Shown here in pieces: positions 1 through 21,970 of a DNA stretch of 21,970 bases. The stretch's first letter is position 1. Every line of letters begins with the position of its first letter. The position numbers and the translations under genes are program-made. Below the pieces are notes generated by a model. It saw nothing but the letters and a program-made list of their open reading frames with translations, had not been told where the DNA came from and did no database searches. The stretch lies in sequence record NZ_CP014059.2; one strand, written 5' to 3'. The DNA comes from a plasmid.

Positions 1-912
1 GCTCGCCGCGCCCATAGCCGCACCGATGGCAGCGCCCGCGCCGAAATTACCGATGCCGCCAGCGTTCCCCACGCCCGTACCGGAAATGACGCCCGCGACC
101 AGCGGCGGCACGCGATTGACCAGCATGAGCAACGCCACGCAGAAAACCAGCATCACGCCCAGCTCTTCAAAGTTCAGCGTGCCGGTGTTCATCCTGGCGT
201 AGAAGCTGGAAAGCAGGTCGTTCCCGATGCCGACCAGGAGCACCATCGTCATGATCTGCACGGCCACGCCCAGCACAGTCTTGTAGTAGTTGATCGCCAT
301 GTCGGACGTCCAACGGCTTCCACCGAAGCCGAGGAAGAAGATGCCGGCGTACATCAGCAGCCAGCCCGAGACGAGCAGCAACAGCATGTTTATGGCAACG
401 ACAGCCAGCAGGATCAGGATGCCGAGGCTCAAGGCCACGCCGATGAAGCTATCCACGGGAGACCAGATCGACGAGTTGCTGAATGCCTGCTTCAAGATCA
501 TGAAGCCGATATCCACGATGCCCGAGGGTGTCACCGATGCCACCCCGGACGCCTGCTCACCGATCCGGGCCAATGACTGGATGATCGAGTTGGCGAAGGC
601 CGGGCCGTTGCGCAGCAGCCAGAGGAAGAAGCCAAAGAACAGGATGAAGCGGATGAACTCGGCGAAGAACTCGCCAATGTCGGCCTTGCGCAGCGCCATG
701 AAGCCGAACGTGAAAACCAGCGAGATCGTGCCCAGCGTCCAGAACAGGAACATCGCGGCATTCATCACCACCGTCTGCCAGGACGTGGCCCGCGTGGCGA
801 ACTCCGTCACCACCTGGTCAAGCATCCCTTGATTGGTGAGCTGGGCCGATGCGGCGGTGGAGTAAAGCGCGAGCGTGACGCCGATCAGCGCCGCCTTGTG
901 CAGTGCTTTCAT
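1..912 (-). CDS. trbL: TrbL (VirB6-like mating-pair-formation protein), N-terminal 304 codons; the ORF runs off the left edge of the window
   Basis: Minus-strand ORF starts with ATG at 912-910, overlapping the trbK stop (ATGA). The product is hydrophobic and multi-TM, MKALHKAALIGVTLALYSTAASAQ..., in the trbJ-trbK-trbL order typical of IncP-1 Tra2. Codon phase reaches position 1 exactly (..GAAS). Confidence 0.85.
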   Translation of the reverse strand, partial: MKALHKAALIGVTLALYSTAASAQLTNQGMLDQVVTEFATRATSWQTVVMNAAMFLFWTLGTISLVFTFGFMALRKADIGEFFAEFIRFILFFGFFLWLLRNGPAFANSIIQSLARIGEQASGVASVTPSGIVDIGFMILKQAFSNSSIWSPVDSFIGVALSLGILILLAVVAINMLLLLVSGWLLMYAGIFFLGFGGSRWTSDMAINYYKTVLGVAVQIMTMVLLVGIGNDLLSSFYARMNTGTLNFEELGVMLVFCVALLMLVNRVPPLVAGVISGTGVGNAGGIGNFGAGAAIGAAMGAAS

Positions 913-1175
913 GGCTTCGCCTCCTGGTCTTTCGGGTCGGCCAGTTCGAGCCAGTTCATGGGCTTCTCGGTCGGCGCGATGCCGCCGGCGGCCGGCGACC
1001 GACGCGAGCACAGCCCGGCGAATTTCTCGCGCGTACCCCTGTCCTCGATCTTCTTGATCGCCTCGATCTGGCAATTGGTGTCATTGACCTCGGGCATGGG
1101 CGGAATGGCCGGCTTGTTGTCGCAGCCAGCCACCAGCACCACCACGAGGCCGGCAAGCAGCATCGTTTTCTTCAT
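909..1175 (-). CDS. trbK: TrbK-like entry-exclusion lipoprotein (88 aa)
   Basis: Small ORF between trbJ and trbL. It has a signal peptide with lipobox LVAGC. A GGAGG Shine-Dalgarno lies upstream. Position and size match IncP-1 TrbK. Confidence 0.7.
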   Translation of the reverse strand: MKKTMLLAGLVVVLVAGCDNKPAIPPMPEVNDTNCQIEAIKKIEDRGTREKFAGLCSRRSPAAGGIAPTEKPMNWLELADPKDQEAKP

Positions 1176-1190
1176 GGTGCAGGGCCTCCG

Positions 1191-1976
1191 TCAGCGGGTC
1201 AGTTCGAGCCAGTTCTTCGGGCTCGCCGTGCGCTCGATCCTGGATTCCCTGGAAGTCGCGCCGGCGGCCTGCTGTTGCGCCTCAAGGTCGGCCTGCGCCT
1301 GCATCCTGGCGGTCGCGGCGTTCTGCTGCGCGATCAGCAGGCCGCGAATCTGCAAGAGCTGGTTCGCCTGGTTGGCGGCGAGCTGGTTGGCGAAGCCGAT
1401 GGCCTGCATCTGCCCGGTCGCACCCTGCGCGGCCGACTGGAGCCGTTCGAGCTGGCGAGCGTCGGCGGTAAGGTTGCGCTGCTGTTGCTCCAGACCCTTG
1501 AAAAGCGCGTCGTTCGCCTTCTTCTGGCTCTCGCTCGCCAGGCGGCGGTTCTCTTCCATCGCGGCGCGCTCTGCATCCGAGCAACCGGCGGCCGAGAAGC
1601 ACGGCGAGCCACGGTAATAGGCCACGTCCTGGAACTTGCCCAGGTAGCTGTCGAGACTGCCGAGCTGGTTCCGGTAGTAGTCCAGCGTGTTGACGGCATT
1701 CATCAGCCCGTTGATCGTGGACTGCGCCTGATCCCAGATGTAGGCCGCCGGGGCCATCGTGTTTTGCAGCATGTTCTCGTACTGCTGCAATTGGGTCTGG
1801 TACTGCTCGATCTGCTTGAGCGTCTGCGCCACCGACTCGATGGCCGTCATGACGTTCTGCACCAGGTTGCCGCCGTCGATGACGGGAATGCCGGCCTGCG
1901 CCGGGGTAATGATGATGCTGCCGGCCAGGGCAGCGGCGAGCGCGGTTTTAGCCGCTAAAAGGCGGACGTGTTTCAT
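1191..1976 (-). CDS. trbJ: TrbJ (VirB5-like minor pilus/Mpf protein, 261 aa)
   Basis: Signal peptide followed by a Q-rich coiled-coil region (QLQQYENMLQNT). Gene order is as in IncP-1. A GAGG Shine-Dalgarno lies upstream of the ATG at 1976. Confidence 0.85.
   Translation of the reverse strand: MKHVRLLAAKTALAAALAGSIIITPAQAGIPVIDGGNLVQNVMTAIESVAQTLKQIEQYQTQLQQYENMLQNTMAPAAYIWDQAQSTINGLMNAVNTLDYYRNQLGSLDSYLGKFQDVAYYRGSPCFSAAGCSDAERAAMEENRRLASESQKKANDALFKGLEQQQRNLTADARQLERLQSAAQGATGQMQAIGFANQLAANQANQLLQIRGLLIAQQNAATARMQAQADLEAQQQAAGATSRESRIERTASPKNWLELTR
1947..1959. promoter_or_regulatory. KorB operator (OB) consensus TTTAGCCGCTAAA, inside trbJ codons 6-10
   Basis: Exact match to the IncP-1 OB palindrome TTTAGC(G/C)GCTAAA. 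Confidence 0.8.
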
Positions 1977-2152
1977 GGTCGAGTACCTCGATGTGATGAG
2001 CGGCTAATCTGCCCCACGACCTACCGACAAGGCTGGTCATGGGGTTGGGCCATCACGAGACAGTTCGCCACGAAAAGACTGTCAAGGTACCCGCCCAGGA
2101 CGACACCGTCGCGTCCGGGCTTACGTTTTTGTTGAACATCGGTGTAAGCTAA

Positions 2153-2180
2153 CTAGCTGCTATATAGCTTCTAGCTGCTA
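2153..2180. promoter_or_regulatory. Two direct copies of CTAGCTGCTA (2153-2162 and 2171-2180) upstream of trbJ; putative operator
   Basis: The same 10-11-bp motif recurs at 9141-9172 and 10131-10141 in other promoter regions. Confidence 0.5.
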
Positions 2181-2218
2181 ATTCGGATGCTAATCGAACA
2201 TCCGAGAATTCGCAAGCG

Positions 2219-4048
2219 TCATCGCCCGCGCTTCTTGCCCTCCTGGCGTTTCGCCTTCTTGGCTTCCATCTGCGCCCGTAGCCGCGTCTCGCGCTGTTCC
2301 AGCTCGGACGGCGCGGGCCTGGCCGGCTGCTGAACTTTGGCCGGCGGCGGTGTCGGGGTGGCCTGGGTCGGCGCTTGTACCGGCCGCTGGGCTTCGCCCT
2401 CGATGTGCAGCCCGTCGAGCTGGCCCAACGTGCGCAGGCCGTGCCGGCGATGTGGCGGCGGCTCCTGGCCGACAGGGGGCACACCTGGCCGGCGCTTGGC
2501 CTGGGCCTTGGTGGCCTCGGCCTGCCGCCGGCTTTCCAGTGCCGGATCGGCGAAGGTGATGGGGAGCTGGGCATCGACGGCCGCCCGGATCACGGCGGCC
2601 TTGAACTCCACGCTGCCGCTGACAGTGATGCGCTCGCCGTAGCGTTCCATTGCCAGGCGCAGCGCCGCCGCCACGCCGGCGCGGTCGGCCTGGCTGGACA
2701 CGGCCAGGCGCTCGCCGTCATCGCGCACGGCCGAGCTGCCGGCGCGGTAGATGATCGTGCCCTTCTTCGTGATGCTGTCGATCACCGGGGCATGGCCGGG
2801 CTTCGCCTGGCCGTCGCCCTGGATGGTGTCGCCCTTGAGGCCCTGGGCCGCCTCGCGGGCGCGCAGCGCATCGAGCGCCTGGCCGTCGCCGGCCGTTGCC
2901 TGCTGCTTGAGCCAGTCGGCCCACGGCCGCCGGCGGTGCTCGTTGTAGATCGCCGCCCGCTCCTGGTCGTGGCGCTTGTGGATCGCCTCCAGGTCGGCCC
3001 GCAGAGCGGCGCTGGCCTGGGCATACAGCAGCTTCTTGGTCAGCCGGCCATCGGTCAGGTGCTTGATGGCCGCCCGCCGGGTGGCCGCCGCCTTCTTGGC
3101 GTGCTCGATGGCCCGATCCTTCCGGCGCTTCGCCTCGGCCAGCACGCCGGCCCTGGCGGCTGTGAGGGTCTGCTGTGCGCCCTTGTACCGGGCGTAAAGC
3201 TCGGTCGTATCCAGGCCGCCGCGCAGACGCATCGGCCGGCCCTTCTGGTAGTTGCGCCGTGCCGGCGCGGCCTGGCGCTCGGGCGACGCCTCGAACGTGC
3301 CAAGCCGCTTTTCCAGGGCGGGCTTGGACAGGTCGCGGGCCAAGGTGCTGGCCTTGATGATCGTGCCGTCGCCGGCCTCGATGACCAGGCCGTTACCGCG
3401 TGCGCGCAGCGCCAGGCCGTTGTCGCGCATGACCTGGTGCAGCTCGGCCCAGCTTGCCGCGTCCTTGATCTCGTCCAGGCACTCGCGCTTGATCCAGCCG
3501 ACCAGGCTTTCCACGCCGGCGTGCTGCTCCAGGTCGCCAGCCCTGGCGGCCGCGCCGCGCTGGCGTGGTTCGTGGTTGTCGCGTTCCAGGCCGTAGTCGC
3601 GTTCCAGGGTCGTGCAGAGGTCGGCCAGCGCCCGATGCGAGTAGTACGGCTCCTGCATCGTGCCCCTGGTCGGGTGAATCTTGTTGATGGCGATGTGGAT
3701 GTGCAGGTTGTCGGTGTCGTTATGCACGGCGCTGACGCGCTGATGCTCGCCCAGGCCCAGCCCGTCGCAGATGCGGGCCTCGATCTGCCGCAGGGTGTCG
3801 GCGCTCGGCTGCTCGCCGGCGCGAAAGCTGACGATCAGGTGATAGGTCTTGTCGCCCTTGGCCCGCGTGTTGGCCTGCTGGGTTGCCAGTACCTCGGTGA
3901 TTGCATCGCGCACGGTGTCGGCGGCGCAGTTCGTGACCTGCACCTGGCCCAGCCGGTGGTCTTTGCTCTGCGCGTCGGTGACGTAGCGCACCAGGCCGGC
4001 GAAGTCGGACTTGCCCAGCGAGCGCATGGGCACGTGCTTGGCGATCAC
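2219..4048 (-). CDS. traI: TraI relaxase, MOBP / IncP type (609 aa)
   Basis: N-terminus MIAKHVPMRSLGKSDFAGLVRYVTD is near-identical to RP4 TraI, with the catalytic Tyr at position 22. The His motif HNDTDNLHIHIAIN is present. The start overlaps the traJ stop. Confidence 0.93.
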   Translation of the reverse strand: MIAKHVPMRSLGKSDFAGLVRYVTDAQSKDHRLGQVQVTNCAADTVRDAITEVLATQQANTRAKGDKTYHLIVSFRAGEQPSADTLRQIEARICDGLGLGEHQRVSAVHNDTDNLHIHIAINKIHPTRGTMQEPYYSHRALADLCTTLERDYGLERDNHEPRQRGAAARAGDLEQHAGVESLVGWIKRECLDEIKDAASWAELHQVMRDNGLALRARGNGLVIEAGDGTIIKASTLARDLSKPALEKRLGTFEASPERQAAPARRNYQKGRPMRLRGGLDTTELYARYKGAQQTLTAARAGVLAEAKRRKDRAIEHAKKAAATRRAAIKHLTDGRLTKKLLYAQASAALRADLEAIHKRHDQERAAIYNEHRRRPWADWLKQQATAGDGQALDALRAREAAQGLKGDTIQGDGQAKPGHAPVIDSITKKGTIIYRAGSSAVRDDGERLAVSSQADRAGVAAALRLAMERYGERITVSGSVEFKAAVIRAAVDAQLPITFADPALESRRQAEATKAQAKRRPGVPPVGQEPPPHRRHGLRTLGQLDGLHIEGEAQRPVQAPTQATPTPPPAKVQQPARPAPSELEQRETRLRAQMEAKKAKRQEGKKRGR

Positions 4049-4422
4049 GATTGCCCGCCTCGCGGCCGCACCACGCTTTCCGCGATGGTGCTGATCTTGT
4101 CCTGGGTCGCCTCGATCCGGGCCAGCAGCGCCCGGATGGTGTCATCGCCGAAGCGGGCCGTGCGCGGGTCGTCGGTCAGCCAGAGCTTGAGCAAGCCGCC
4201 CAGCCGCCCGAGGTCGCCATTCACGCGCACCAGGTCGCGCACGTTCTCGAAGTCGGTCACGCCTTTGACCTGGTAGCCCTGACCGACCGCCAGCAGGTAG
4301 GCGGACGTGCTCATGCCGGCGGCCTGGGCGTTGGCCTCGATGGCGGCCCGTTCGTCCGGCAGGCAATAGACCTTGATGGGCGTGCTGCCCTTCCTCGTTA
4401 CCTTGTTCTCGTTGGCCTCCAT
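4045..4422 (-). CDS. traJ: TraJ oriT-binding relaxosome protein (125 aa)
   Basis: The segment IKVYCLPDERAAIE...GMSTSAYLLAVGQGY...INGDLGRLGGLLKLWLTDDPRTARFGD is almost identical to RP4 TraJ. Confidence 0.92.
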   Translation of the reverse strand: MEANENKVTRKGSTPIKVYCLPDERAAIEANAQAAGMSTSAYLLAVGQGYQVKGVTDFENVRDLVRVNGDLGRLGGLLKLWLTDDPRTARFGDDTIRALLARIEATQDKISTIAESVVRPRGGQS

Positions 4423-4508
4423 CTTGGCGTCCTCTGTCGTTGCCGGCGGCCGCCGGCTGGCCCCGCAGGGCAGGATGCCCCGTTGAGCGCCGCAGGCGCG
4501 AATAAGGG

Positions 4509-4568
4509 GAAGTGAAGAGGATCACCATGCTTGCATGGTGGGCCTACTTCACACATCCTGCCCTCTAT
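4509..4568 (+). other. oriT core: imperfect inverted repeat 4511-4552 and nic region CTTCACacATCCTG|CCC, with the nick predicted between 4560 and 4561 on the + strand
   Basis: The RP4 nic region is CTTCACCTATCCTG|CCCGG. The neighbouring AATAAGGGgAaGTGAAGA and GGTGGGCCTACTTCAC are also conserved. It lies between divergent traJ and traK, as in IncP-1. Confidence 0.9.
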
Positions 4569-4777: not shown

Positions 4778-5206
4778 ATGAAGCCGATGGGAACCCGATA
4801 CACCGATGAACTTGCCGCCTGGGCCGATCAGAAGGCCGAGAAGAAGCGCCGCCAGGACGCGGCGGCAGTAGCGTTTCTGGCGGTGCGCGGGGATGTGGTC
4901 GAGGCAATGGAAGCCGGCTACGCGCTGACGACGATCTACGATCACATGCACGAAACCGGCCGGGTGAAAACCAGCTATGAGACGTTCCGCCGGCACGTCC
5001 AGCGGTTCATCAAGGCAGCGCCGGCCGACACCGCGCCGCCGACACCGAAGGCCGCCACCAGGTCGGCCAGCAACTCGCCGACCACCGTTCCAGCCGTCAC
5101 GCCAAAGCCGGCCGTATCAGCTCCGGCCAGCCCTGCCAGCGAGCAAGCCGGGAAGATTCCCAGCTTCAATTTCAACCCGACGCCGAACAAAGAGGACTTG
5201 CTGTAA
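4778..5206 (+). CDS. traK: TraK oriT-binding/bending protein (142 aa)
   Basis: YTDELAAWADQKAEKKRRQDAAAVAFLAVRGDV...SYETFRRHVQRFIKA...FNFNPTPNKEDLL matches RP4 TraK. Confidence 0.9.
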   Translation: MKPMGTRYTDELAAWADQKAEKKRRQDAAAVAFLAVRGDVVEAMEAGYALTTIYDHMHETGRVKTSYETFRRHVQRFIKAAPADTAPPTPKAATRSASNSPTTVPAVTPKPAVSAPASPASEQAGKIPSFNFNPTPNKEDLL

Positions 5207-5425: not shown

Positions 5426-6346
5426 TCACTCGCCGCCTGGCTTCTTCCTGGTCGCAGGCTTCGCCTCGGCCGCCGGCGGCGTGATACGGGCCAGCAGCGC
5501 GGCAGATTGCTCCTTGAGCGTGTCGAGTTGCCCCGCCATGCGGGCAGCTTCCTCACGAGCCTGCGCGGTGGCCTTCGCGGCCTGATCGCGCTCGGCCTGC
5601 GCTGCCGTCAAGCGTTCTGCCATACGCTGCGCCTCGACCGCTGCGGCCTTCCGCTGCTCCTGGTGCGCTTCGCGCTCGGCATCGGCCTTGGCGCGGACGG
5701 TCGCCAGTTCCTCGCGCACCTGGTCAAGTTGAGCGGCGACAGCCTGGCCGGCTTTCTGCTGGTCGGCCAGCGCCCGGCGTGCTTGGTCTGCGTCCTCGTG
5801 GGCGCGGTCAAGTTCGGTGCGCAGCTCGCCGGCCCTGGCCTCGGCCGTGGCGGCCCGCTCACTGGCCGCTGCCAGCTCTTGGCGAACGGCGGTGAGTTCC
5901 TGGGCCAACTTTTCGGCGGCGGCCTTCTCAGCGGTCAGCTCGGCCGTGGTCGCCTCCAGCTCGCCGGCCTGGCGCTCGAAAGCCTCGGCCAGCTCCTGCC
6001 GCATCGCGTCCAGCTCGGCCCGCTCTGTTTCCCATGCGGCCTGTGCGCTGCGCAGGGATTCGTTCGCCAGCTCCTGGGCCTGCTGCCAGATCGTCGCCAC
6101 GGCGGCGCTGCTGGCCTGCTGCACGACCTCCGGCACCGCCACGGCCACCGGGGCGGCCTGGGCAGTCTGCGCCCTGCGCCATTCCTTCATCACGGCGCTG
6201 GCTGCGTTCATATCTACGCGGGCGGCCCGGCGCACCGCATCGACCGTGGGCATCGTCTCGCGGCCCGACTGCTCGAAAAGATCAGTGGCGGCGGCAATGA
6301 TGCGCTCGCGCACGTCGGCGGGGATTTGGGGGGCTTGCGGTGTCAT
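5426..6346 (-). CDS. kfrA: KfrA-like alanine-rich coiled-coil DNA-binding protein (about 306 aa from the ATG at 6346)
   Basis: Long Ala/Glu/Gln/Arg-rich coiled coil. The N-terminal wHTH-like segment is VDAVRRAARVDMNAASAVMKEWRR. It is convergent with traK, as in IncP-1. An autoregulatory palindrome lies upstream. Confidence 0.8.
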   Translation of the reverse strand: MTPQAPQIPADVRERIIAAATDLFEQSGRETMPTVDAVRRAARVDMNAASAVMKEWRRAQTAQAAPVAVAVPEVVQQASSAAVATIWQQAQELANESLRSAQAAWETERAELDAMRQELAEAFERQAGELEATTAELTAEKAAAEKLAQELTAVRQELAAASERAATAEARAGELRTELDRAHEDADQARRALADQQKAGQAVAAQLDQVREELATVRAKADAEREAHQEQRKAAAVEAQRMAERLTAAQAERDQAAKATAQAREEAARMAGQLDTLKEQSAALLARITPPAAEAKPATRKKPGGE

Positions 6347-6368
6347 GGCATCGGCTCCGGTGGATAAG

Positions 6369-6399
6369 ATAAGAAGAATAATATTATTATTCTTCTTAT
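6369..6399. promoter_or_regulatory. Perfect 31-bp palindrome ATAAGAAGAATAATA-T-TATTATTCTTCTTAT in a nearly 100% A+T island; putative KfrA operator / kfrA promoter
   Basis: The 15-1-15 palindrome lies 23-53 bp upstream of the kfrA ATG. GATAA repeats and a GGTGGATAA DnaA-box-like motif (6359-6367) flank it. Confidence 0.7.
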
Positions 6400-6624
6400 T
6401 ATGCAAGCCATTATTTTCCGCATGGCCTGGATCAGCCCGGCCGGGAGCGCGTCGGGGGTCGAAATTCGGGCCTGGGCGGGCCGTGGCGGCGTTTTCCAGG
6501 GTTGGCGGCACTATCCCCTACCCTCGCCCGGTTTCGGGCGTCCTGGGCGTTTCTACGCGGCCGATCTCCGGCGCAAACGAAAAAAGCCAGACCACGGCCG
6601 GCCTGGCTTCCCCTTGGCGTCAGA

Positions 6625-6639: not shown

Positions 6640-6948
6640 TTAGGTCGCGGCCTGTAGGCGCTTCACGGCTGAAACGAAGTCCAGGCGCAGCAGGTGCATG
6701 GCAAGGTCGATGGCACCACCGCCGCCCTTCTCTGCGCGGGTGTCGTACCACTTCGGCCCGGTCGCCAGCAGCTCCACGCCACCGCCACCCAGCGCGACAT
6801 TCACCCGCACCGTGGCCTTGTCCTTGATCGGTTTGAAATCCGGGTCGTACTTCCAGTAGAGGCCCAAGAGATCGAGCGTGGCCGTTACCTGCATCGCGTG
6901 CAGGCGTGCCAACAACTCCGGCGGGAAAGCTCGCCGGGCGCGGCTCAT
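6640..6948 (-). CDS. Small protein (102 aa from the ATG at 6948) with a degenerate, cysteine-less CHC2 primase zinc-finger-like segment
   Basis: High GC3 real-gene codon usage. KWYDTRAEKGGGGAIDLAMHLLRLDFVSAV resembles the zf-CHC2 tail CFGCGagGDvIDFvm but lacks the cysteines. It is adjacent to the PrimPol rep gene. Confidence 0.45.
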   Translation of the reverse strand: MSRARRAFPPELLARLHAMQVTATLDLLGLYWKYDPDFKPIKDKATVRVNVALGGGGVELLATGPKWYDTRAEKGGGGAIDLAMHLLRLDFVSAVKRLQAAT

Positions 6949-6949: not shown

Positions 6950-7280
6950 ACAACACCCCGGCGAGCTGGACGAGGGAGCCGCCCTTCGGGCGGCGGGCTA
7001 CTCCGGGCCTTCGGCCCCTCCGCGCCGTTCCGGCGCTGCGCGGCCCGTGGATAACTTGCAAGCAAGTTACCCACCGCCCTTGCCGGCTACTCGCGTTATA
7101 TAAACGCAGGGGGCTACTCCGGCCTACGGCCGAGGCGGACAAGCCGCTAGGCTTCGCCATTAGTAATACGGACGGACTTGTCTCAAGCATTGTGGCCGCC
7201 CTCGTCACTTCCGGCGATGCTGGCCAGGTCGGCCGCCTGGGCCTGTAATACGGATGGACTTGTCTCACTCGCCGGCGCGG
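6950..7280. other. Candidate vegetative origin (oriV) / rep-proximal repeat region
   Basis: It contains a UUCG-loop hairpin at 6978-6994. It has a 21-22-bp direct repeat GGGCTACTCCGG(G)CCT(T/A)CGGCC at 6995-7016 and 7111-7131. A DnaA-box-like cGTGGATAA sits at 7046-7054, next to the palindrome TAACTTGCAAGCAAGTTA at 7052-7069. An A+T palindrome GCGTTATATAAACGC is at 7093-7107. A 23-bp direct repeat GTAATACGGA(C/T)GGACTTGTCTCA at 7163-7185 and 7245-7267 overlaps the 3' end of rep. Confidence 0.4.
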
Positions 7281-8565: not shown

Positions 8566-8630
8566 AACCCCTTCCCGCACGGAATCCGCGCGTGACTCTT
8601 GCCATTGAAGGGGTCAGGCCGTAGAATGAG

Positions 8631-8642: not shown

Positions 8643-8730
8643 AGTCGTGGGTGCGGTTGAACCCATAACCTCATTCATCGGCTGTCGTGTCTATCAGCTC
8701 GCCAAAGCTGGTAGGCCCGGAACCCCCGCC

Positions 8731-13297: not shown

Positions 13298-13513
13298 GCT
13301 TTGTCTGCTCCGGGCGGGACAGCGTCATCCAGCTACCTGCGCCACTGACTCAGCCTTGTCCAGCCGGCCGCGCCGCACGAACAGACTGACCAGCCGTTGA
13401 CGGATCGCCACCTGGAGTTCCGCCAGTTGTTCCGGCGTGATGCGAATTTCACCCGCTCGACGAGCGCAACACCGGCGCCGCCTACGCCAAGAACCGGCGA
13501 ATCGAACTCAAAC

Positions 13514-14368: not shown

Positions 14369-14473
14369 ATAAGACGATAGGTTACGTATTTGATACTTTA
14401 CGTGCCATATCGTACCAAACAAAGGGCGATCATGCCCACGTGCTCTTGCACCTCACCCACTACGGAGATAGAC

Positions 14474-15007: not shown

Positions 15008-15034
15008 TCTCCATAGGCATATAAGGAGAACACG

Positions 15035-15583
15035 ATGAAAATCGCACTCACCGGCGCTCTGCTCGCCAGCGCCCTCGTCCTGCCACTGGCCGTCACGGCC
15101 GGCGACTTTTCGCCCTATGTGGACAGCCAGGGCGGCATCAGCCGCCCCACAGACTTCCGCACAAACTTCGTCCACCTGGGCTCATATGCGGTGTTGGACG
15201 AAAAATCCGCCTCTCGCGGCTTGCACGATGTGTACACCGAAAAGGCCTCGGCCGAGCACTACCGCAAGACCGGCAAGTTCTTGGACGGCGCCACGCTGGT
15301 GAAAGAGATCCGCAAGCTCGAAACCAGCGCCATGACCACTGGCAACCCTGTGGTCTAGGGTTCCGATGCGGCCGTGTGGTTCGTGATGGTCAAGGACGCC
15401 AAAGGCCGTTTCGCCAGCAACCCCTTGTGGGGCGACGGCTGGGGCTGGGCGCTGTTCAAGGCCGACGCCCCCGCCAAGAATGTCGCCGTCAGCTACGAAG
15501 CCGACTGCATGGGCTGCCATGTGCCGGCGGCCAAGACCGACCGCGTATTCATCCAGGGCTATCCGACACTGACCCAGCACTGA
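15035..15583 (+). pseudogene. Cytochrome P460 / c'-beta family hemoprotein interrupted by an in-frame TAG at 15356-15358
   Basis: AAGGAG Shine-Dalgarno. Signal peptide MKIALTGALLASALVLPLAVTA. The reading frame continues across the TAG into ..WFVMVKD... and the C-terminal heme motif CMGCH. Total length about 183 codons, typical for the family. Confidence 0.7.
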
Positions 15584-15656
15584 CTTGCTGCCGGGTTACG
15601 CTTCGCGCAGGATGGCACCTCCGTCCTGCGCGAGCCACCCTTTCCGGAAGCGCGCC

Positions 15657-16257
15657 ATGCCGACACTCGACGCCTTTCTGACCGACGTCCGCGCCTGCAC
15701 GCGCTGCGCACCGCATCTGCCACACGGCGTGCAGCCGGTCTTCCAGTTTCACCCGAGTGCGCCCATCCTCATCGCCGGCCAAGCACCGGGGGCCCGGGTC
15801 CATGCCTCAGGCGTGCCCTTCGACGACGCCAGCGGCGCGCGTCTGCGCGCCTGGCTGGGCGTGGACCGCGACACCTTCTACGACCCTACCCGCATCGCCA
15901 TTCTGCCCATGGGCTTCTGTTATCCGGGCACCGGCAAAAGCGGTGACCTGCCGCTACGCCCGGAGTGCGCCCCCCGCCTGGCGCGAAGCCTTCATGCAGC
16001 GTTTCGAGCGCCTGTCGCTGGTCATCGTGCTGGGCAGCTACGCCATGGACTACCACCTCGGTACTGGCAAGACGCCGCTCACCCGGGTGGTCGAAGCCTG
16101 GCGCGAGCACTGGCCGCAAGCGTTCCCCCTGCCTCACCCTAGCCCGCGCAACAATCGCTGGCTGGTGCGCAACCCCTGGTTCCAACAAGACGTGCTGCCC
16201 GCGCTGCAAGCACGCGTCCAGGCAGTCCTCACCGCCAACCCCAAGGAAACCCCATGA
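15657..16257 (+). pseudogene. Family-4-type uracil-DNA glycosylase-like gene with a +1 frameshift in a C6 run (15972-15977)
   Basis: Frame 3 gives MPTLDAFLTDVRACTRC..ILIAGQAPGARV..GFCYPGTGKSGDLPLRPECAP. Frame 1 continues AWREAFMQRFERLSLVIVLGSYA...LPHPSPRNNRWLV (HPSP motif). Deleting one C in the tgcgccccccgcctgg run restores a single protein of about 199 aa. Confidence 0.7.
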
Positions 16258-16372
16258 CCGACGACACCGCCGCCATTACCGAGCTGCTGCACAAGTACTA
16301 CGACACCCTGGCCTGGGCGAACGGAGACAGGCACCGGCTTTGGAGCGATGAACGACGGCTTCAGGTGCGGTA
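16254..16372 (+). pseudogene. Truncated SnoaL/NTF2-like fragment (39 codons)
   Basis: MTDDTAAITELLHKYYDTLAWANGD is the typical N-terminus of a SnoaL-like domain. ATGA overlaps the UDG stop. The ORF ends after 39 codons. Confidence 0.35.
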
Positions 16373-16440
16373 GCTGACGCCTGGGACCTCAATCACCGTA
16401 TGACCGGGTCGAAAGCGGTCCTTTCTCTGACAACATCGCC

Positions 16441-17325
16441 CTAGCCCGCACTCAACCCCCACAACACATCCAGCACATGTTGCGTAGGCCGCTCGACGTC
16501 CCCACCACGGTGGGCAATACCAAGTTGACGCCACAATAAGGGCTGTAATGGCCGCATGACGATCCTGGTATCGGGCAATGGCGTGGAGGCTTCATGCGGC
16601 AACAACGTCGCACCATAACCGGCCGCCACTAGGCTTTTGATCGCATCGTTGTAGTTCAGTTGAATACGCGGCGTGGGCTGCCGTCCATCACTGGCGAACC
16701 ACTCCGAGGTCAAGCGCGAAAGCCGAGTAGTTTTGTCATTCAGAATTAATGGCTGGGCGGCCAGCCAACCGGGGGTCACAACATCCGGGCATTCCCAGCG
16801 AGCCGGCAAGAAGGCCATGACCGGGTCCCGCCGCCATGGCTCGATCCGCAATTCCTTCACCGGGGTCTGTGGCAGCGCGACCAGACCGATCTCCAAAGAG
16901 CCCTCGGCAAGCTTCTTCAAAGTTTCCTGCGACGTGAGCACCGCGACCTGCACATCGATAGCGGGATGGCGTTGGCCCAACGTCTCCAAAGCTTGCGGCA
17001 TCAACTGTGCGATGGCCCCTGTGGAGGCACCCAGCCGCACACGCCCGGCCAAGCCCTGCACCTGACGCTCCACGTCCTCAAGCGCCTGCTCCGCATCCGC
17101 CAACAGGCGCCGCGCGCGCTCCACCAGCGTTTCTCCAATCGCCGAAGGCTGAATGCGCCCACGTGTGCGCGACAACAGCTTTCCGCCAACCCGCGACTCC
17201 AGGTCGGCAATATGCAAACTGACCGTGGGTGGCGCGAGGTGCAGCACACGGGCCGCCTCGGCAAACGAACCCAGGTCGGCAATGGCCACCAACGTGCGCA
17301 GACGGTCCAGGCTGATTTCGCGCAT
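16441..17325 (-). CDS. LysR-family transcriptional regulator (294 aa)
   Basis: N-terminal HTH LRTLVAIADLGSFAEAARVLHLAPPTVSLHIADLE and a C-terminal substrate-binding domain. Confidence 0.85.
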   Translation of the reverse strand: MREISLDRLRTLVAIADLGSFAEAARVLHLAPPTVSLHIADLESRVGGKLLSRTRGRIQPSAIGETLVERARRLLADAEQALEDVERQVQGLAGRVRLGASTGAIAQLMPQALETLGQRHPAIDVQVAVLTSQETLKKLAEGSLEIGLVALPQTPVKELRIEPWRRDPVMAFLPARWECPDVVTPGWLAAQPLILNDKTTRLSRLTSEWFASDGRQPTPRIQLNYNDAIKSLVAAGYGATLLPHEASTPLPDTRIVMRPLQPLLWRQLGIAHRGGDVERPTQHVLDVLWGLSAG

Positions 17326-17338
17326 GAGTCACTCCTTG

Positions 17339-17373
17339 TTCAGAAAAGCTGAATTTCATCGTTTAGAAATTCA
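17339..17373. promoter_or_regulatory. LysR-type T-N11-A box TTCAGAAAAGCTGAA (17339-17353), overlapping the palindrome TGAATTTC-N8-GAAATTCA (17350-17373)
   Basis: Immediately upstream of the LysR start (17325). Confidence 0.5.
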
Positions 17374-17420
17374 ACTTTTCCTATCTTAGCCCCTCACTGA
17401 AGATTGGAACTCCTGATTTC

Positions 17421-19148
17421 CTATGTCCGAGAGCATTCCATGGCAAGTCCTCTTATATTCATCGACGGCGACCACTCCTCGATCTGATCGAACGGTTTGG
17501 CCGGCGGCAGGTTGTCTGCCTGCGGGTCAGCCATGTCCACATCCGGCGGTATGGGCTTGGCCGGTGGCTCCGACGTCTTGAGGTGCTGGCGGCGATCAGC
17601 GTCGCGCCGCGCCTTGCGCGTGGCCTTCTGGGCGGTGGTCACGATCTCGCGCATCTGCCCGATCATGCGGAACAGCGCCGACTCGTCCACCTGCTCGCGC
17701 CCGAGCTGACGCAATTTGGCCAGCGCCTGGCGTTGTTCCCAGAGGGTGACGGCCGGATGGGACAAGGTGCGGTAGTGGATCTCCAGATAGTGCTGACCTT
17801 CCGGTTCCAGTACCCAGATGCGGCTGATGTCGCGCGGATCGCGCCGGATCAGGAAGGCGGGCAAGCGCTCGCGCCGGGCAATCCACGGCTTGAGGGCGTC
17901 GGCGTAGTAGTGGATGTGGTCGATGACAAAGCCGGTGCGGGTCAGGGTGCGGCGGATCACCGGCAGGAAATCGACCAAAAACGCGGTGGGGCGGGTAACG
18001 ACGGCCGGGACGCCAACGCGCTCCACGGCCTCGGCCCAGCGCGCGGCCGGCGGCTGGAGCAGGCCGTTGTGCACGGAGCCGTGATAGGTGCCTACCGCCA
18101 ACGCGAGCCAGCGCTCCAGCTCGCGCAGCGTCAGGGTGGCCATCTTCTCGGAATCGTACTCGCCGCGCTGGCCGGGATTGGAGAAGGTCGTCCCCGGTAA
18201 TTCGTCGTGGATCATCTGCATCGCCGTGCCGATGATCCGTTCCACGATGCCGCCGTAGTGCGGCTGGCCTGGTGGGCGATAGTCCAGCCGGATGCCATGC
18301 TGTTCGCAGCCACGGCGCAGCGCTTCGCTTTTGAACTCGGCCGCGTTGTCCAGATAGAGCAGCCTGGGCTTGCCGCTCATCGGCCAGTCCATTTCCACAT
18401 TCAGCCCTTCCAGCCAGGGCCGCTTGTCGCAGGCGGCATGCGCGAGGCATAGGCCGACCGAGACGGCGGACGGCGCTTCCAGCGTGACCACCATGCCGAG
18501 TACGCAGCGCGTGAACACGTCGATGGCGAGGGTCAAATATGGGCGGCCAATCGGTTGCCGGTCGCGCTCGTCGACCACGATCAGGTCGATGACGGTGTGG
18601 TCGATCTGCACCTGTTCCAGCGGCATGGTGACTTCTGGCGGAATGCCACCCGCGCCTTGCAAGGGACGGGCAGCGTCCTGCCCGCCCCGGCTGCGGGCTA
18701 TTTTCGCCGGGTGTAGTCCGGCAATCCGCTGGGCCACGGTGTTGCGCGCCGGCACCGGCAGCTTCTGGGTTTTGCACGCCTGCGCGACTTCGCGGTGGAA
18801 CGCCGCCAGGCTGCGTTTCTGCTTGGTCAGGAAGCGCTTTTGCAGCAGCTCGCGGATGATGCGCTCGACCGGTTCCGGCAAGCGCCCCTTGCCTTTGCCG
18901 CCGCCGGATCGGCCGGGCGTCAGGTCTGTTACCAGGCCAGTACCCTGCCGGGCGCGACGGATCAGGACATATACCTGTCGCCGGGACAGGCCCAGCGCTT
19001 GGGCTGCCTCATCGGCGGCTTCATGCCCGACCACCTCAAGCGCTGCCAGTGGCCCGATGATTTCCGTCCGGTGCCGGGCTTGCGCCCATGCCTCGTCGGG
19101 CAGGGTGGCCACGCCTTGCGCGGCAATCGGTGGAGTGTCTGATGTCAT
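17421..19148 (-). CDS. tniA: TniA (Tn402/Tn5053-family DDE transposase, TnsB/MuA-like), about 575 aa from ATG 19148
   Basis: MTSDTPPIAAQGVATLPDEAW...GLSRRQVYVLIRRARQG...QVQIDHTVIDLIVVD... is near-identical to Tn402/Tn5053 TniA. tniB, tniQ and tniR are absent downstream; the LysR gene follows directly. Confidence 0.92.
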   Translation of the reverse strand: MTSDTPPIAAQGVATLPDEAWAQARHRTEIIGPLAALEVVGHEAADEAAQALGLSRRQVYVLIRRARQGTGLVTDLTPGRSGGGKGKGRLPEPVERIIRELLQKRFLTKQKRSLAAFHREVAQACKTQKLPVPARNTVAQRIAGLHPAKIARSRGGQDAARPLQGAGGIPPEVTMPLEQVQIDHTVIDLIVVDERDRQPIGRPYLTLAIDVFTRCVLGMVVTLEAPSAVSVGLCLAHAACDKRPWLEGLNVEMDWPMSGKPRLLYLDNAAEFKSEALRRGCEQHGIRLDYRPPGQPHYGGIVERIIGTAMQMIHDELPGTTFSNPGQRGEYDSEKMATLTLRELERWLALAVGTYHGSVHNGLLQPPAARWAEAVERVGVPAVVTRPTAFLVDFLPVIRRTLTRTGFVIDHIHYYADALKPWIARRERLPAFLIRRDPRDISRIWVLEPEGQHYLEIHYRTLSHPAVTLWEQRQALAKLRQLGREQVDESALFRMIGQMREIVTTAQKATRKARRDADRRQHLKTSEPPAKPIPPDVDMADPQADNLPPAKPFDQIEEWSPSMNIRGLAMECSRT

Positions 19149-19376
19149 GCCCAAACCTCGCTTTGGTGCACACGAGTATTGAGCATAGTCGAGATTGGTG
19201 CAGACGACTCCTGATATTGGGCTGTCAGGAGCCGTATGCACACCAGGCGTTACATCCAGTCAGATGGTGCGGTCGTCTTCTGAAAACGACAATATGCGCC
19301 TAGCTCAAAACGCCAGCCTTAAAGAGCCTTTTCAAGACAGTTTCAGCGTGATGGACTTGGGGGCAGGGAAGGGCTA

Positions 19377-19413: not shown

Positions 19414-19686
19414 ATGGCAACGTCTCTCAAGATCGACGACACGCTGAAAGGTCGCGTCCAGCACCTCGCCAGCCAGCGCCGCCGCTCGCCCCACTGGATC
19501 ATGCTCGAAGCGATCCAGCAGTACGTCGAGCGCGAAGAAGCCCGCGAGAGCTTCAAGCAGGAAGCCTTGGCGTCCTGGGCGGCCTACAAGGAAACCGGCC
19601 GCCACCTGACCGGCCAGGAAGTTCGCACCTGGTTGAACACCTGGGGCACCAATGACGAAAGGGCGGTGCCTGAGTGCCACAAGTAA
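19414..19686 (+). CDS. parD: RHH (CopG-like) antitoxin of a ParE/RelE-type TA pair (90 aa)
   Basis: N-terminal RHH (SLKIDDTLKGRVQHLA). C-terminal ..TGRHLTGQEVRTWLNTWGTNDE.. is typical of ParE-partner antitoxins. It overlaps the toxin start. Confidence 0.7.
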   Translation: MATSLKIDDTLKGRVQHLASQRRRSPHWIMLEAIQQYVEREEARESFKQEALASWAAYKETGRHLTGQEVRTWLNTWGTNDERAVPECHK

Positions 19687-19967
19687 TCGTCACCGAAGGC
19701 GCGGCGGAAGGCTTGGAACGATGCCGGCGGTTCCTGGCCGTCAAGGCACCGGACGCCGCCAGGCGTGCCGGCCAGGCCATCGAGCGGCAATTCCTGCTGC
19801 TGGAGACGGCCCCGGACATTGGCCGGCCGTTCCCTGAAATGCCCGAGCTGCGCGAGCTGGTGATTGCCTTCGGGGATTCCGGCTATGTGGCCCTGTACCG
19901 CCACGAACCGGCCGACGATGCGGTGTATGTTCTGGCCTTCCGGCACCAGAAAGAGGCGGGCTACTGA
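19674..19967 (+). CDS. parE: ParE/RelE-superfamily toxin (97 aa)
   Basis: ParE-like pattern ..VALYRHEPADDAVYVLAFRHQKE... Translationally coupled to the antitoxin. It is divergent from the resolvase, as in the RK2 parDE arrangement. Confidence 0.75.
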   Translation: MPQVIVTEGAAEGLERCRRFLAVKAPDAARRAGQAIERQFLLLETAPDIGRPFPEMPELRELVIAFGDSGYVALYRHEPADDAVYVLAFRHQKEAGY

Positions 19968-20136
19968 TGACCACCAAGACCGTGAGCGCCGCCGTACCGG
20001 CGGCCGTGAAGGCCGAAGCTGCCGCTATCTCGGCCGCGCACGGCATGAGCATGGCCGCGCTGCTGCGCGAGCTGCTGGCCCGCGTAGCCGCCCGCGATGC
20101 TGAAACGCTGGCCTGGCTCAATAAGGCCCGCCGATG
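19968..20136 (+). CDS. Small RHH-like protein (56 aa), not in the ORF track; translationally coupled to parE and to the next gene
   Basis: ATG at 19968 abuts the parE TGA. Predicted strand-helix-G-x-S-helix pattern (KTVSAAVPAAVKAEAAAISAAHGMSMAALLRELLARV). Confidence 0.4.
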
Positions 20137-20508
20137 ACCGACCCGAAGAACCTGGAAAGCTGGCTGCATGAGAAAGCTGGCCCGGCCTATGACGCATTGA
20201 AGGCCGACCCGGCCCGCGCCGTCACGGCTGACCAGGTGCGCTACACGCTCGATGAGCTGCTGGCCGAAGCCGAAGCATCCGGCCAGTATCCATTGCCGCC
20301 TGAGCAACGCGAATGGGTGGATGCCCCGGCCGTTGGCCGTGAGCTGCTGCCCGAGGACTTGCAAACCGCCGAAGCTATAGCTGCGTTCCTGGCCGATGCC
20401 GAAACCACGGCCGACCCGGCCTATATCCAGCACGCCCGCGAAGTTGCGGCGCTGGCCAGCATCGCCATTTCTGGCGGTGCTGCAGGTGGATCTCATCGCC
20501 GGAAATGA
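20134..20508 (+). CDS. Acidic helical hypothetical protein (124 aa)
   Basis: ATGA overlap with the 56-aa ORF. Net charge about -10. No recognisable motif. Confidence 0.45.
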   Translation: MTDPKNLESWLHEKAGPAYDALKADPARAVTADQVRYTLDELLAEAEASGQYPLPPEQREWVDAPAVGRELLPEDLQTAEAIAAFLADAETTADPAYIQHAREVAALASIAISGGAAGGSHRRK

Positions 20509-20623
20509 CGATGCGAGATCCACGCCAAGGGAAAGGGCAGGGCGGCCGTCATCGCTCGATCTGGCGATGCTCGAGAACGCCGGCGCGCATCGTCGGAAAC
20601 GGCGATGCAGGCCCGAAAACGAC

Positions 20624-20646
20624 AAGGGCGGCCACCGGCCGCCCTT
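20624..20646. terminator. Perfect hairpin AAGGGCGGCC-acc-GGCCGCCCTT between convergent genes; rho-independent terminator for minus-strand gene 20664..20897 (GTCGTTTTC tail)
   Basis: 10-bp GC-rich stem. On the minus strand it is followed by TTGTCGTTTTCGGGC. Confidence 0.6.
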
Positions 20647-20663
20647 GCTGTTCCTGGTAGAGC

Positions 20664-20897
20664 CTACGCGGTGAGTGACTGCCGCACCGCGTCCAGGGCC
20701 TGGCGGAAGTCGTCCCGCGTAGCCTGGCCCGTCTCGGCCTGGTAGTACAGCACCATGAACATATTGGCGACGGCTTCCGCCATCGGCGAGAGCTGCCGCG
20801 CCGCCTCTTGGTCGATCCAGTCCAGGGCCGCGAGCTGTGCGGCCGCATGATGGACTGCCTGGGTTGCGATTGCATTGGTAGGATTCAAAGTTGCCAT
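20664..20897 (-). CDS. Hypothetical helical protein (77 aa)
   Basis: GAGGTGA Shine-Dalgarno upstream of the ATG. A terminator lies downstream. Confidence 0.5.
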   Translation of the reverse strand: MATLNPTNAIATQAVHHAAAQLAALDWIDQEAARQLSPMAEAVANMFMVLYYQAETGQATRDDFRQALDAVRQSLTA

Positions 20898-20960
20898 GAT
20901 TCACCTCTGTGGTAGGTGGGTTGTGGAAGTGTCGGCCGGCCCCACGCCGGCCGGCGCGCT

Positions 20961-21218
20961 TTATCGCTGGCCGCTGCTGTAGATGCCGGCGGCCTCGGCC
21001 AGCGGCGTGTTCCTGTTGCTGCCGCTGTAGCTGTTGCTCGATGACTTGGCCGCCGGCCTGATGGCCTCGATGGCAGACGGGGCAGGGCGATCAACGAAGG
21101 CCGCCACTTCCGCCGCTGCATCAAGCTCGGTTGATTGATCGCCAGGCTGCTCAAACTCCACCGCCGGCCGCTGCACCTGGTCGAGCGCCAGGCAGTCGAA
21201 AAAGCCACTACGTTTCAT
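20961..21218 (-). CDS. Hypothetical protein (85 aa from ATG 21218), translationally coupled to the 3' end of trbL
   Basis: A GGAGG Shine-Dalgarno lies 9 nt upstream. The ATG at 21218 is 2 nt from the trbL stop codon (21221-21223). It occupies the position where IncP-1 has trbM. Confidence 0.5.
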   Translation of the reverse strand: MKRSGFFDCLALDQVQRPAVEFEQPGDQSTELDAAAEVAAFVDRPAPSAIEAIRPAAKSSSNSYSGSNRNTPLAEAAGIYSSGQR

Positions 21219-21220
21219 GG

Positions 21221-21970
21221 TCACGCCTCCGATTTACCGTGCTCGCGGTTGGCGAACGCGGCCACTTCGTCATCAGGATCGGCAGCAGCCGAATCGGCCC
21301 CTGCCAGGTTGTTGCCGCCGAATGTCGGCACCGCCTCGACAGCGGCGGCCTGGTCACTCTCCGCACTCGCCCTGATAGCCGCCGCGATCTTCCCGCCGGT
21401 GGTGTCAGCGATGCGTTCGGCGGCGGCGTCGCGCATGCTGGCGGCCTTGGCCTTCGCAACCTCGCCGACGCCTTGCATCAGGTTCGCGCCGGCGTCGGCC
21501 GTCACGCGGCCCGCCGTGCCAAGCGCCGATGCGGCCGAGGCCAGCAAGCCGGGGCCGGTGCTGCCTGGTGCGGCCTGCTGGCCGCCTTGCTGGGCTTTCT
21601 TGCTGCCGGCTTCGTCGCCACCCTTCGAGCTGGGACCTCCACCCGATTTACCGGGCTGCTGCCCATTGCTTCCACCCGAGCCGCTGGCACCGCTGCCCGA
21701 GCTGCTGCCGAAACCGGCGGCCTGTGCAAGTGGTGTAGTGGTGCCCGCACCTGAGCTTGACCCGCCACCAAAGCCAGCAGCTTGCGCAAACGAGCCTGCA
21801 TCGCTGCCGGGGTCGGAGCCGCCACCGAGCATGGGCATTCCGCCCGACTCGCCGCCGGCGCTCGATCCCGCTTTCTCGAACGCTGCCTTGATGGCCGACA
21901 TGCCGCCGGCGGCCGAGGTTGCACCACCCATCACGGCCGCACCGGCTACGCTTGCCGCACCAGCGGCCAT
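21221..21970 (-). CDS. trbL: C-terminal Gly/Ala/Ser-rich low-complexity part of TrbL (249 codons), continuous with 1..912 if the molecule is circular
   Basis: The ORF reaches the right edge of the window in a phase that joins the codon ending at position 1. The low-complexity composition continues seamlessly (..GAAIGAAMGAAS + MAAGAASVAGAAVMGG..). Combined length is 554 codons, about the size of IncP-1 TrbL. Confidence 0.65.
   Translation of the reverse strand: MAAGAASVAGAAVMGGATSAAGGMSAIKAAFEKAGSSAGGESGGMPMLGGGSDPGSDAGSFAQAAGFGGGSSSGAGTTTPLAQAAGFGSSSGSGASGSGGSNGQQPGKSGGGPSSKGGDEAGSKKAQQGGQQAAPGSTGPGLLASAASALGTAGRVTADAGANLMQGVGEVAKAKAASMRDAAAERIADTTGGKIAAAIRASAESDQAAAVEAVPTFGGNNLAGADSAAADPDDEVAAFANREHGKSEA

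Follow-up and report, generated by a model that had tools for sequence, protein, structure and literature searches.

The 21,970-nucleotide stretch of plasmid DNA analyzed here (sequence record NZ_CP014059.2; the whole stretch is referred to below as the window) begins and ends within sequence that resembles trbL, a mating-channel gene of IncP-1 plasmids, and this raises the question of whether the window is a fragment of a larger molecule or a complete plasmid that happens to be opened inside a gene. The original prediction, made from the letters of the sequence, was that the window is an entire circular replicon linearized in trbL. Our comparisons support this prediction: the two ends are contiguous in all of the independent relatives that we examined, and the backbone is collinear with that of a small plasmid of Xanthomonas cucurbitae. 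Based on these comparisons, we consider it very likely that the window is a complete 21,970-bp circular plasmid of the pMATVIM-7/pPE52IMP family, mobilizable and non-self-transmissible, that was arbitrarily opened in trbL.

Ends of the window and the trbL gene

The minus-strand translation of positions 1 to 1200 opens with MKALHK, from an ATG start codon at 912-910, and reads in phase to base 1, where it ends in GNFGAGAAIGAAMGAAS. At the other end of the window, a Gly/Ala/Ser-rich open reading frame (ORF) on the same strand starts from base 21970 with MAAGAASVAGAAVMGG and reaches a stop codon at 21221-21223 (translation of positions 21101 to 21970). Both halves were described correctly in the original prediction, as was the coupled gene that follows the trbL stop, an ORF of 85 to 87 amino acids (20961..21218/21224). 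The 85-amino-acid form of this hypothetical gene (20961 to 21218, minus strand), which is translationally coupled to the end of trbL, is annotated in all relatives and has no family hit. The left piece of trbL (positions 1 to 912, minus strand) comprises the N-terminal 304 codons, which specify a VirB6-type membrane core according to Pfam and NCBIfam and are identical to those of plasmid p3-T1 of Acidovorax sp. T1 (NZ_CP021651.1). The right piece (positions 21221 to 21970, minus strand) comprises the C-terminal 249 codons, which specify the Gly/Ala/Ser-rich tail, and the stop codon.

When the two pieces are joined, the predicted TrbL has 553 amino acids (304 from 912..1 and 249 from 21970..21224), a correction to the 554 given earlier, and it remains about the size of IncP-1 TrbL (576 amino acids). 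Alignment of the joined protein with IncP-1 TrbL, which had been proposed as a check, yields a single high-scoring segment pair of 563 columns that runs across the 21970|1 junction, covers residues 16 to 571, and has 52% identity (E value, 1.6e-124); the C-terminal tail lies within this one alignment. The joined protein also matches the Pfam family TrbL (PF04610; E value, 5.9e-39) and the NCBIfam P-type equivalog TrbL_P (TIGR02783), for which its score of 263 bits compares with a cutoff of 129. In-phase joining of the two window ends to this extent is far beyond chance and is not a coincidence.

The junction itself is seamless. At 21970|1 there is no duplicated or missing base, no remnant of an insertion sequence (IS), and no target duplication, and we found no terminal overlap between the two ends of the window. 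As a junction probe we used the last 1,500 bases of the window followed by the first 1,500 (3,000 nt), as well as a shorter, 600-nt version. The 3,000-nt probe aligns over 3000/3000 positions, ungapped, with p3-T1, and is 99.9% identical to each of two copies in plasmid pLH3.4 of Xanthomonas perforans (NZ_CP018473.1). The 600-nt probe is found at 100% identity in 12 loci, which include those in p3-T1 and pLH3.4, from 11 independent assemblies (NCBI, ENA, and Logan). In p3-T1, an intact 553-amino-acid trbL is annotated at the junction, and the region encoding WP_061070728.1 is identical. The adjacency of the window's ends is thus shown indirectly, because 11 independent assemblies of relatives contain the same sequence, uninterrupted and 100% identical.

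The rest of the window gives the same picture. The backbone of the X. cucurbitae plasmid (NZ_CP082216.1; 14,122 bp) is found in the window in its entirety, each segment once and in the same order. The differences between the window and its larger relatives are internal insertions or deletions only, and the window runs uninterrupted through the sites at which p3-T1 has extra DNA.

Several observations count against the conclusion that the window is complete. DNA inserted exactly at the trbL cut would be visible only in reads or in an assembly graph. Searches of PLSDB, in which the best coverage is 85%, and of genome, viral, and metagenome collections did not find this exact 21,970-bp configuration. 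In addition, some relatives have an IS21-family element in trbL, though it lies at codon ~446 rather than at codons 304/305, where the window is cut. This element (rve plus IstB) is inserted after codon ~446 in three related assemblies (GCA_0315752xx / GCA_0315754xx; L004, L005, and L007), which form one clade and are otherwise identical plasmids. Such an insertion makes it conceivable that the window is a contig of a larger replicon, with an IS or a repeat in trbL exactly at the cut, a disrupted trbL gene, and an assembly that was broken there; the existence of bigger relatives, such as the 56-kb p3-T1, would also fit. We consider this very improbable given the different position of the element in the relatives, the seamless join described above, the purifying selection on trbL across the family, and the uninterrupted course of the window through the p3-T1 insertion sites.

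The deposited pLH3.4 sequence, a "complete" record of 38,746 bp, consists of two ~19.37-kb units joined head to tail; this dimer is either an assembly artifact or a genuine multimer. One of the relatives with an IS21-interrupted trbL (L007) is on a 166-kb contig, where it lies beside copper and efflux genes. The dimeric record and this 166-kb TrbJ-bearing contig could be taken to mean that the window is likewise one unit of a tandem multimer, or of a copy that has become part of a chromosome or a cointegrate. Of the alternatives considered here, this is the one to which we give the least credence. Unless the sequence had been deliberately trimmed, it would be a surprising coincidence for the window to comprise exactly one unit and to join without a seam, and we found neither an integrase nor an attachment site in the backbone. 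For a multimer, moreover, the gene content and the conclusions would be the same. If the window is a whole replicon, as we conclude, the gene list given below is a complete inventory, and the absences from it are real and not artifacts of a fragment. Such an inventory is useful for annotation and plasmid typing.

Plasmid family and comparison with IncP-1

Comparison of the window with 72,556 plasmids (PLSDB) by megablast identified a family of small plasmids with the same genes, the complete members of which are 14 to 56 kb in size. The identical TrbJ protein occurs in 226 collection blocks, mostly on contigs of 10 to 50 kb. The family has been described previously and includes pMATVIM-7, pPE52IMP, pMRVIM0713, pD5170990, and p4130-KPC (Gomez-Martinez et al. 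2022, PMC9501424). Its backbone consists of RepA, parA/parC, kfrA, the MOBP11 genes traJ/traK/traI, and trbJ/trbK/trbL, with no traG or trbB-I; its accessory DNA sits between toxin-antitoxin genes and a resolvase gene; and it was termed mobilizable, no transconjugants having been obtained (PMC9501424). The window is a further member of this MOBP11 family and an ordinary accessory variant of it. It represents one more version of a widespread, broad-host-range mobilizable backbone. In clinical Pseudomonas, relatives of this backbone carry the carbapenemases VIM, IMP, and KPC. The label "pMOS94-like" was considered for the family and rejected, since pMOS94 is a MOBF11 plasmid with a trw channel and an iteron-type repA (PMC6614342).

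The window and pMATVIM-7 (p07-406, NC_009739.1) have rep, parA-orf-parC, the resolvase gene, kfrA, traK/oriT/traJ/traI, trbJ-trbK-trbL, and the ptaRNA1 toxin gene in the same order, with amino acid identities of 96% for TraI, 98.6% for TrbL, 89% for Rep, and 100% for ParA. They also share the accessory hot spot, which in the window is occupied by a transposon between the resolvase gene and the CopG/ParE genes. The cargo is different: instead of an integron, a carbapenemase gene, and a mer operon, the window has a defective Tn402-type element that encodes regulators and small enzymes. The C-terminal ~90 residues of Rep and the allele of the type II toxin-antitoxin system differ as well.

The closest relatives that we compared are p3-T1 and pLH3.4, in which the backbone is 99.9 to 100% identical and a transposon is inserted at the identical site. 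In p3-T1, there is ~31 kb of extra DNA at window positions 6539-6547, between a 102-amino-acid ORF and kfrA. The alignments on the two sides of this insertion point overlap by 9 bp, which may be a target duplication. Where the window has a LysR gene, p3-T1 has a full tniABQR-mer module, and neither p3-T1 nor pLH3.4 has the window's 2-kb segment with the metallo-beta-lactamase (MBL)-fold and AraC/DJ-1 genes (11289-13302) or its 133 bp at 15108-15240. The X. cucurbitae plasmid is a minimal, transposon-free family member with a complete backbone. It is more distant, with ~90% nucleotide identity, divergent alleles of TrbK (34% amino acid identity) and TrbL (61%), and a divergent Rep C terminus; the window Rep as a whole is 89% identical to this Rep too.

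We compared the family backbone with IncP-1 by searching the circularized window with 38 backbone proteins of an IncP-1 plasmid (tblastn, E value of ≤1e-3). Matches were obtained for TrbJ (77% identity), TrbK (64%), TrbL (52%), TraI (72%), TraJ (60%), TraK (46%), and part of KfrA, while 31 of the 38 proteins had no match in the circularized window. TrfA, KorA, KorB, IncC, TraG, and TrbB-I are among those without a match, so the prediction that trfA, korA/korB/incC, traG, and most trb genes are absent is borne out; the same search also gave no match for Ssb, KorC, TraF, TraC, TraE, TraL, TraM, TrbM, TrbN, and TrbP. By tblastn and by Pfam scans of all ORFs, TrbJ, TrbK, and TrbL are the only mating-channel genes. 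Compared with conjugative IncP-1 plasmids (e.g., NZ_CP120957.1 from Delftia; RP4/R751 type), the window has an identical oriT core and has homologous TraI/J/K and TrbJ/K/L proteins (46 to 77% identity) encoded in the same order. In contrast, it has no TrfA/oriV, KorA/KorB/IncC, TraG, TraF, TrbB-I, TrbM/N, or primase, and its ParA/ParC and Rep proteins are unrelated to those of IncP-1.

These similarities could mean that the plasmid is the decaying remnant of a self-transmissible IncP-1 plasmid, with trbJKL as functionless leftovers. The 46 to 77% identity of the transfer genes, their conserved order, and the identical oriT core would all fit this explanation, as would the label "IncP" that MOB-suite gives the family, despite its lack of IncP-1 replication or control genes (a point of relevance to plasmid typing). 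Other evidence makes a remnant very unlikely. The same minimal gene set is kept in relatives that have diverged to dS values of up to 0.8 to 1.6 in trbL/trbK, and the ORFs are intact, with dN/dS ratios of 0.09 to 0.48. For replication and partition, the plasmid has modules with no relationship to TrfA/IncC/KorB of IncP-1, and the set of a relaxosome plus TrbJKL recurs in integrative mobilizable elements (PMC5704250). The plasmid is not a stripped IncP-1 plasmid; its gene absences are the normal state of the pMATVIM-7/pPE52IMP family.

Transfer and replication

The genes of the predicted relaxosome flank an IncP-type oriT. The MOBP relaxase gene traI (2219 to 4048, minus strand) encodes a protein of 609 amino acids that matches NF041893 with 566 bits, has the Pfam domains Relaxase, TraI_middle, and LPD7, and is 72% identical to IncP-1 TraI. 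The gene traJ (4045 to 4422, minus strand) encodes a NikA-like relaxosome accessory protein (PF21983; 60% identical to IncP-1 TraJ), and traK (4778 to 5206, plus strand) encodes an accessory protein of the DUF5338 type (PF17273; 46% identical to IncP-1 TraK). The oriT region (4459 to 4563) was identified by comparison with IncP-1 and by a match to the Rfam family traJ-II (RF01760; 109.5 bits). The traJ-traK intergenic region aligns with its IncP-1 counterpart, and the 18-nt core ACTTCACACATCCTGCCC, on the plus strand at 4546-4563, is invariant. We take the nick to be after ATCCTG (4560|4561), as is established for IncP oriT. The match to the traJ-II RNA coincides with oriT, and its outer stem consists of the nick region ATCCTGCCC and an inverted copy of it; conservation of the traJ-II motif may reflect the function of oriT at the DNA level rather than that of an RNA.

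Upstream of trbL are trbK (909 to 1175, minus strand), which encodes an entry-exclusion lipoprotein of 88 amino acids (NCBIfam TIGR04359, TrbK_RP4; 78 bits with a cutoff of 23; 64% identical to IncP-1 TrbK), and trbJ (1191 to 1976, minus strand), which encodes a VirB5-type protein of 261 amino acids (NCBIfam NF010452, 425 bits; 77% identical to IncP-1 TrbJ). None of the three trb genes is disrupted in the window, pMATVIM-7, or the X. cucurbitae plasmid, and their dN/dS ratios are 0.09 to 0.48. The orphan trbJKL genes are under purifying selection and are being kept rather than decaying. Divergence within the family is mosaic: between the window and the X. cucurbitae plasmid, identity is 34% for TrbK and 61% for TrbL, as against 97% for TraI and 100% for ParA, and the divergent block consists of the TrbJ C terminus, TrbK, and parts of TrbL. 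In the X. cucurbitae plasmid, the region concerned is at 7432-9326. The window TrbK is nearer to IncP-1 TrbK than to the TrbK of the X. cucurbitae family member. This pattern of sequence divergence suggests allele exchange of a block that would determine exclusion specificity.

Since the plasmid has its own relaxosome but neither a coupling protein nor the other components of a channel, it would have to borrow both of these from another plasmid. The identical oriT core and the 72 to 77% identity of TraI and TrbJ point to a helper of the IncP-1 type. Judging from these sequence similarities, the plasmid would most likely be transferred as follows: its own TraI, TraJ, and TraK would nick its IncP-type oriT, with TraG, the coupling protein, and the TrbB-I mating channel provided by a coresident IncP-1-type conjugative plasmid. 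The transfer data reported for the family are limited to failed self-transfer (PMC9501424).

The retention of TrbJ, TrbK, and TrbL has parallels in other mobilizable elements. The IncP island, GIsul2, and PIMEs have TrbJ-TrbK-TrbL, with or without TraI/TraJ/TraK, and no other channel genes; unlike the window plasmid, which is autonomous and has rep and par genes, they are integrated in chromosomes and have integrases (PMC5704250; bioRxiv 10.64898/2026.01.12.698999). TrbJ and TrbL are core genes of the recently described PIMEs (bioRxiv 10.64898/2026.01.12.698999), and the remodeling of an IncP helper's channel and the evasion of exclusion, by analogy with SGI1, have been proposed for the GIsul2 and IncP-island elements that have the same TrbJ-TrbK-TrbL (PMC5704250). 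By the same analogy, the window's TrbJ (VirB5), TrbK (exclusion lipoprotein), and TrbL (VirB6) probably substitute into the channel of the helper and set or evade entry-exclusion specificity.

Replication is predicted to depend on a single initiator gene, rep (7183 to 8565, minus strand), which encodes a protein of 460 amino acids with a putative core resembling archaeo-eukaryotic primases (AEP) and a putative C-terminal helix-turn-helix (HTH). This protein does not match any Pfam or NCBIfam family. It has >1,200 homologues, which are named "replication protein" by NCBI and are encoded mostly on contigs of 10 to 30 kb, the top ones coming from the same plasmid types. Invariant motifs among them are D87-x-D89, SGRGIQAKW, and ASRVLRL. 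The conserved motifs align to the AEP domain of PrimPol (weak PDB profile E values of 0.09 to 0.11), and the match for the C-terminal KPWEALGMSRASWYR is the HTH in the DNA-binding domain of ColE2 Rep (E value, 0.011). In a Foldseek search with a model of Rep, the best matches were all AEP primases, including RepB' (1.3e-4) and S-2L PrimPol (9.6e-4). The AlphaFold model is poor (pLDDT of 55), and we have treated the fold matches as supporting hints only.

At the 3' end of rep are two direct repeats of 22 bp, GAGACAAGTCC(A/G)TCCGTATTAC, spaced 82 bp apart (7266-7245 and 7184-7163, minus strand); they are candidates for an origin or for sites bound by Rep. One repeat is within the last rep codons and encodes the conserved ETSP(C/S)VLQ, and the other overlaps the stop codon; the repeat core is kept in the diverged relatives, the X. 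cucurbitae plasmid and pMATVIM-7. At a plasmid size of 22 kb, no usable signal for an origin was obtained from GC skew. ColE2-class replicons are free of iterons, and their origin coincides with the 3' end of rep or follows it directly (PMC5304414, PMC4538821); no iterons were found for the pMATVIM-7/pPE52IMP family either (PMC9501424). A ColE2-like origin at the rep 3' end would explain the absence of both TrfA and iterons. We propose that Rep starts replication and that it probably does so, like the initiators of ColE2-class replicons, where its own gene ends, at the two 22-bp repeats. The window would thus resemble the ColE2 class (class C theta) in having a single Rep, an AEP-primase-like core, a C-terminal HTH, a candidate origin at the rep 3' end, and no iteron array, and it differs from that class in that its Rep has no detectable PF03090/PriCT sequence membership.

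Membership of Rep in the ColE2/PF03090 family was rejected on the basis of permissive Pfam scans, which gave no PF03090 or PriCT match at an E value of ≤5 across 20 homologues. The primase-type assignment of Rep has its own difficulties. The similarities are weak (model pLDDT of 55, TM-scores of 0.17 to 0.38, and PDB profile E values of 0.09 to 0.18), and in a comparison of Rep with a genuine ColE2-related RepA (p1448A-B, pPT23A family), the hhalign probability was 0.7%, while p1448A-B RepA itself matches PF03090 at 1e-51. On balance, we give even chances to the idea that Rep works like a primase-type initiator, though by sequence it is not a ColE2-family Rep.

A more far-reaching model would combine these two lines of evidence. 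TrbJ/TrbK/TrbL would re-badge the channel of a coresident IncP-1 helper, giving the plasmid entry to cells that already hold the helper and would exclude it otherwise, as well as an exclusion specificity of its own, which allele swaps of TrbK/TrbL would change, and Rep would represent an uncharacterized branch of AEP-primase initiators with an origin inside the rep 3' end. We put this combined model forward tentatively and regard it, taken as a whole, as rather unlikely. The role of the conserved orphan trbJKL genes and the initiation mode of Rep are questions that concern the whole family and are not discoveries specific to the window.

The transposon and the remaining backbone genes

The window consists of a ~13.86-kb backbone and a defective Tn402/Tn5053-type transposon of 8,109 bp (11183 to 19291), which was delimited by its inverted repeats, its target duplication, an empty site, and Pfam matches. 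The 25-bp terminal inverted repeats, TGTCGTTTTCAGAAGACGGCTGCAC, are at 11183-11207 and 19267-19291 and are 92% complementary. A 5-bp target duplication, ATATG, flanks the element (11178-82 and 19292-96), and the exact empty site, gatctATATGcgcctagc, is present in the X. cucurbitae plasmid. The element was inserted upstream of the resolvase gene, ~57 bp from its start. The cargo comprises genes for an MBL-fold hydrolase, an AraC/DJ-1 regulator, an AraC/cupin regulator, a CMD-family protein, P460, a UDG-like protein, and LysR.

The sole transposition gene of the element is tniA (17421-19241; Mu-transpos_C/rve). The genes tniB, tniQ, and tniR, which are present in p3-T1, are not found in the window, where they are replaced. 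Because it has tniA alone of tniA-tniB-tniQ-tniR, the element is defective and must rely on functions provided in trans. The same transposon, at 99.9% identity, is also inserted at three or more further sites, in different flanking sequence, and one of these copies, on metagenome contig SWCC01005221.1, has a 5-bp duplication of its own, ATGTG. The presence of a separate duplication at another site indicates that the element has moved as a unit despite having only tniA, and it therefore appears to be mobilized in trans.

The window's version of the transposon has some features of its own. The 133-bp segment at 15108-15240, within the P460 gene, is missing from all other copies that we examined. 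This segment restores a full-length P460 ORF with an N-terminal signal peptide (gene region 15035-15583). An amber codon (TGG to TAG) at 15356-15358 is found in the window only, and the cytochrome P460 gene here is either a pseudogene or affected by a sequencing error. The UDG-superfamily gene (15585-16257) is split between two reading frames by a frameshift near 15950, as it is in p3-T1, and is probably a transposon-borne pseudogene. A 40-nt junction specific to this transposon variant was found only in a 174,945-bp contig of Comamonas testosteroni JL40 and in two contigs from metagenomes, of 25,034 and 6,899 bp, and it was not found in viral contigs.

The backbone genes between traK and the transposon are all on the minus strand. 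A KfrA-like DNA-binding protein is encoded at 5426 to 6346 (Pfam KfrA_N, and the RefSeq label of the identical p3-T1 gene), and just upstream of kfrA is an AT-rich, near-perfect palindrome, AATAAGAAGAATAATAATATTATTCTTCTTAT (6365-6400). Downstream of rep is a conserved hypothetical gene for a protein of 102 amino acids (6640 to 6948), which is annotated in p3-T1, pLH3.4, pMATVIM-7, and the X. cucurbitae plasmid and has no Pfam match. The partition module comprises the partition-associated gene parC (8764 to 9078; NCBIfam NF041544, 122 bits), a 109-amino-acid hypothetical gene that overlaps the end of parA (9162 to 9491), and parA itself (9484 to 10116), which encodes a partition ATPase of 210 amino acids with Pfam matches to CbiA/AAA_31/ParA and 100% amino acid identity across the family. 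The 109-amino-acid gene is conserved in all relatives, has no family match, and may encode a partition adaptor.

A palindromic motif, (A/T)CTAGCTGCTAG, is present upstream of trbJ, parC, and parA (2147-2165, 9145-9175, and 10117-10147, respectively). These sites look like a common operator or a centromere-like site and could coordinate the transfer and partition operons. The serine resolvase gene (10202 to 11125; 301 to 307 amino acids; Pfam Resolvase and HTH_7) is predicted to function in plasmid multimer resolution. Between the resolvase stop and the parA start is an 18-bp tandem repeat, AAGATAGAAGCTAGATAC (1.9 copies; 10156-10190). Residues 52 to 105 of IncP-1 TraD give a short tblastn match of surprising strength (61%) inside the C-terminal extension of the resolvase ORF (10298-10462).

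On the other side of the transposon is a type II toxin-antitoxin pair (19414 to 19967, plus strand), made up of a CopG/ribbon-helix-helix antitoxin (19414-19686; Pfam RHH_1) and a ParE/RelE toxin (19674-19967; Pfam ParE_toxin), beside which the backbone holds two small ORFs. A type I system follows. Its ptaRNA1 toxin gene is at 20664-20897 on the minus strand (PF12703; E value, 1.6e-39), and the PtaRNA1 antisense RNA is at 20891-20961 on the plus strand (Rfam RF01811; 84.7 bits with a gathering score of 47), where it is convergent with the toxin gene and overlaps its 5' end. None of the unassigned ORFs in the window has a Pfam domain. This includes ten large alternative-frame ORFs, such as those at 2375-4276 (plus strand; 633 amino acids) and 19741-20904 (minus strand; 387 amino acids), which we take to be shadow ORFs because they have no domains, overlap well-supported genes, and lie in sequence with a GC content of 65%. 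Inside a hypothetical ORF at 20134-20508, residues 49 to 81 of IncP-1 ParD likewise give a short and surprisingly strong tblastn match (79%) at 20152-20250.

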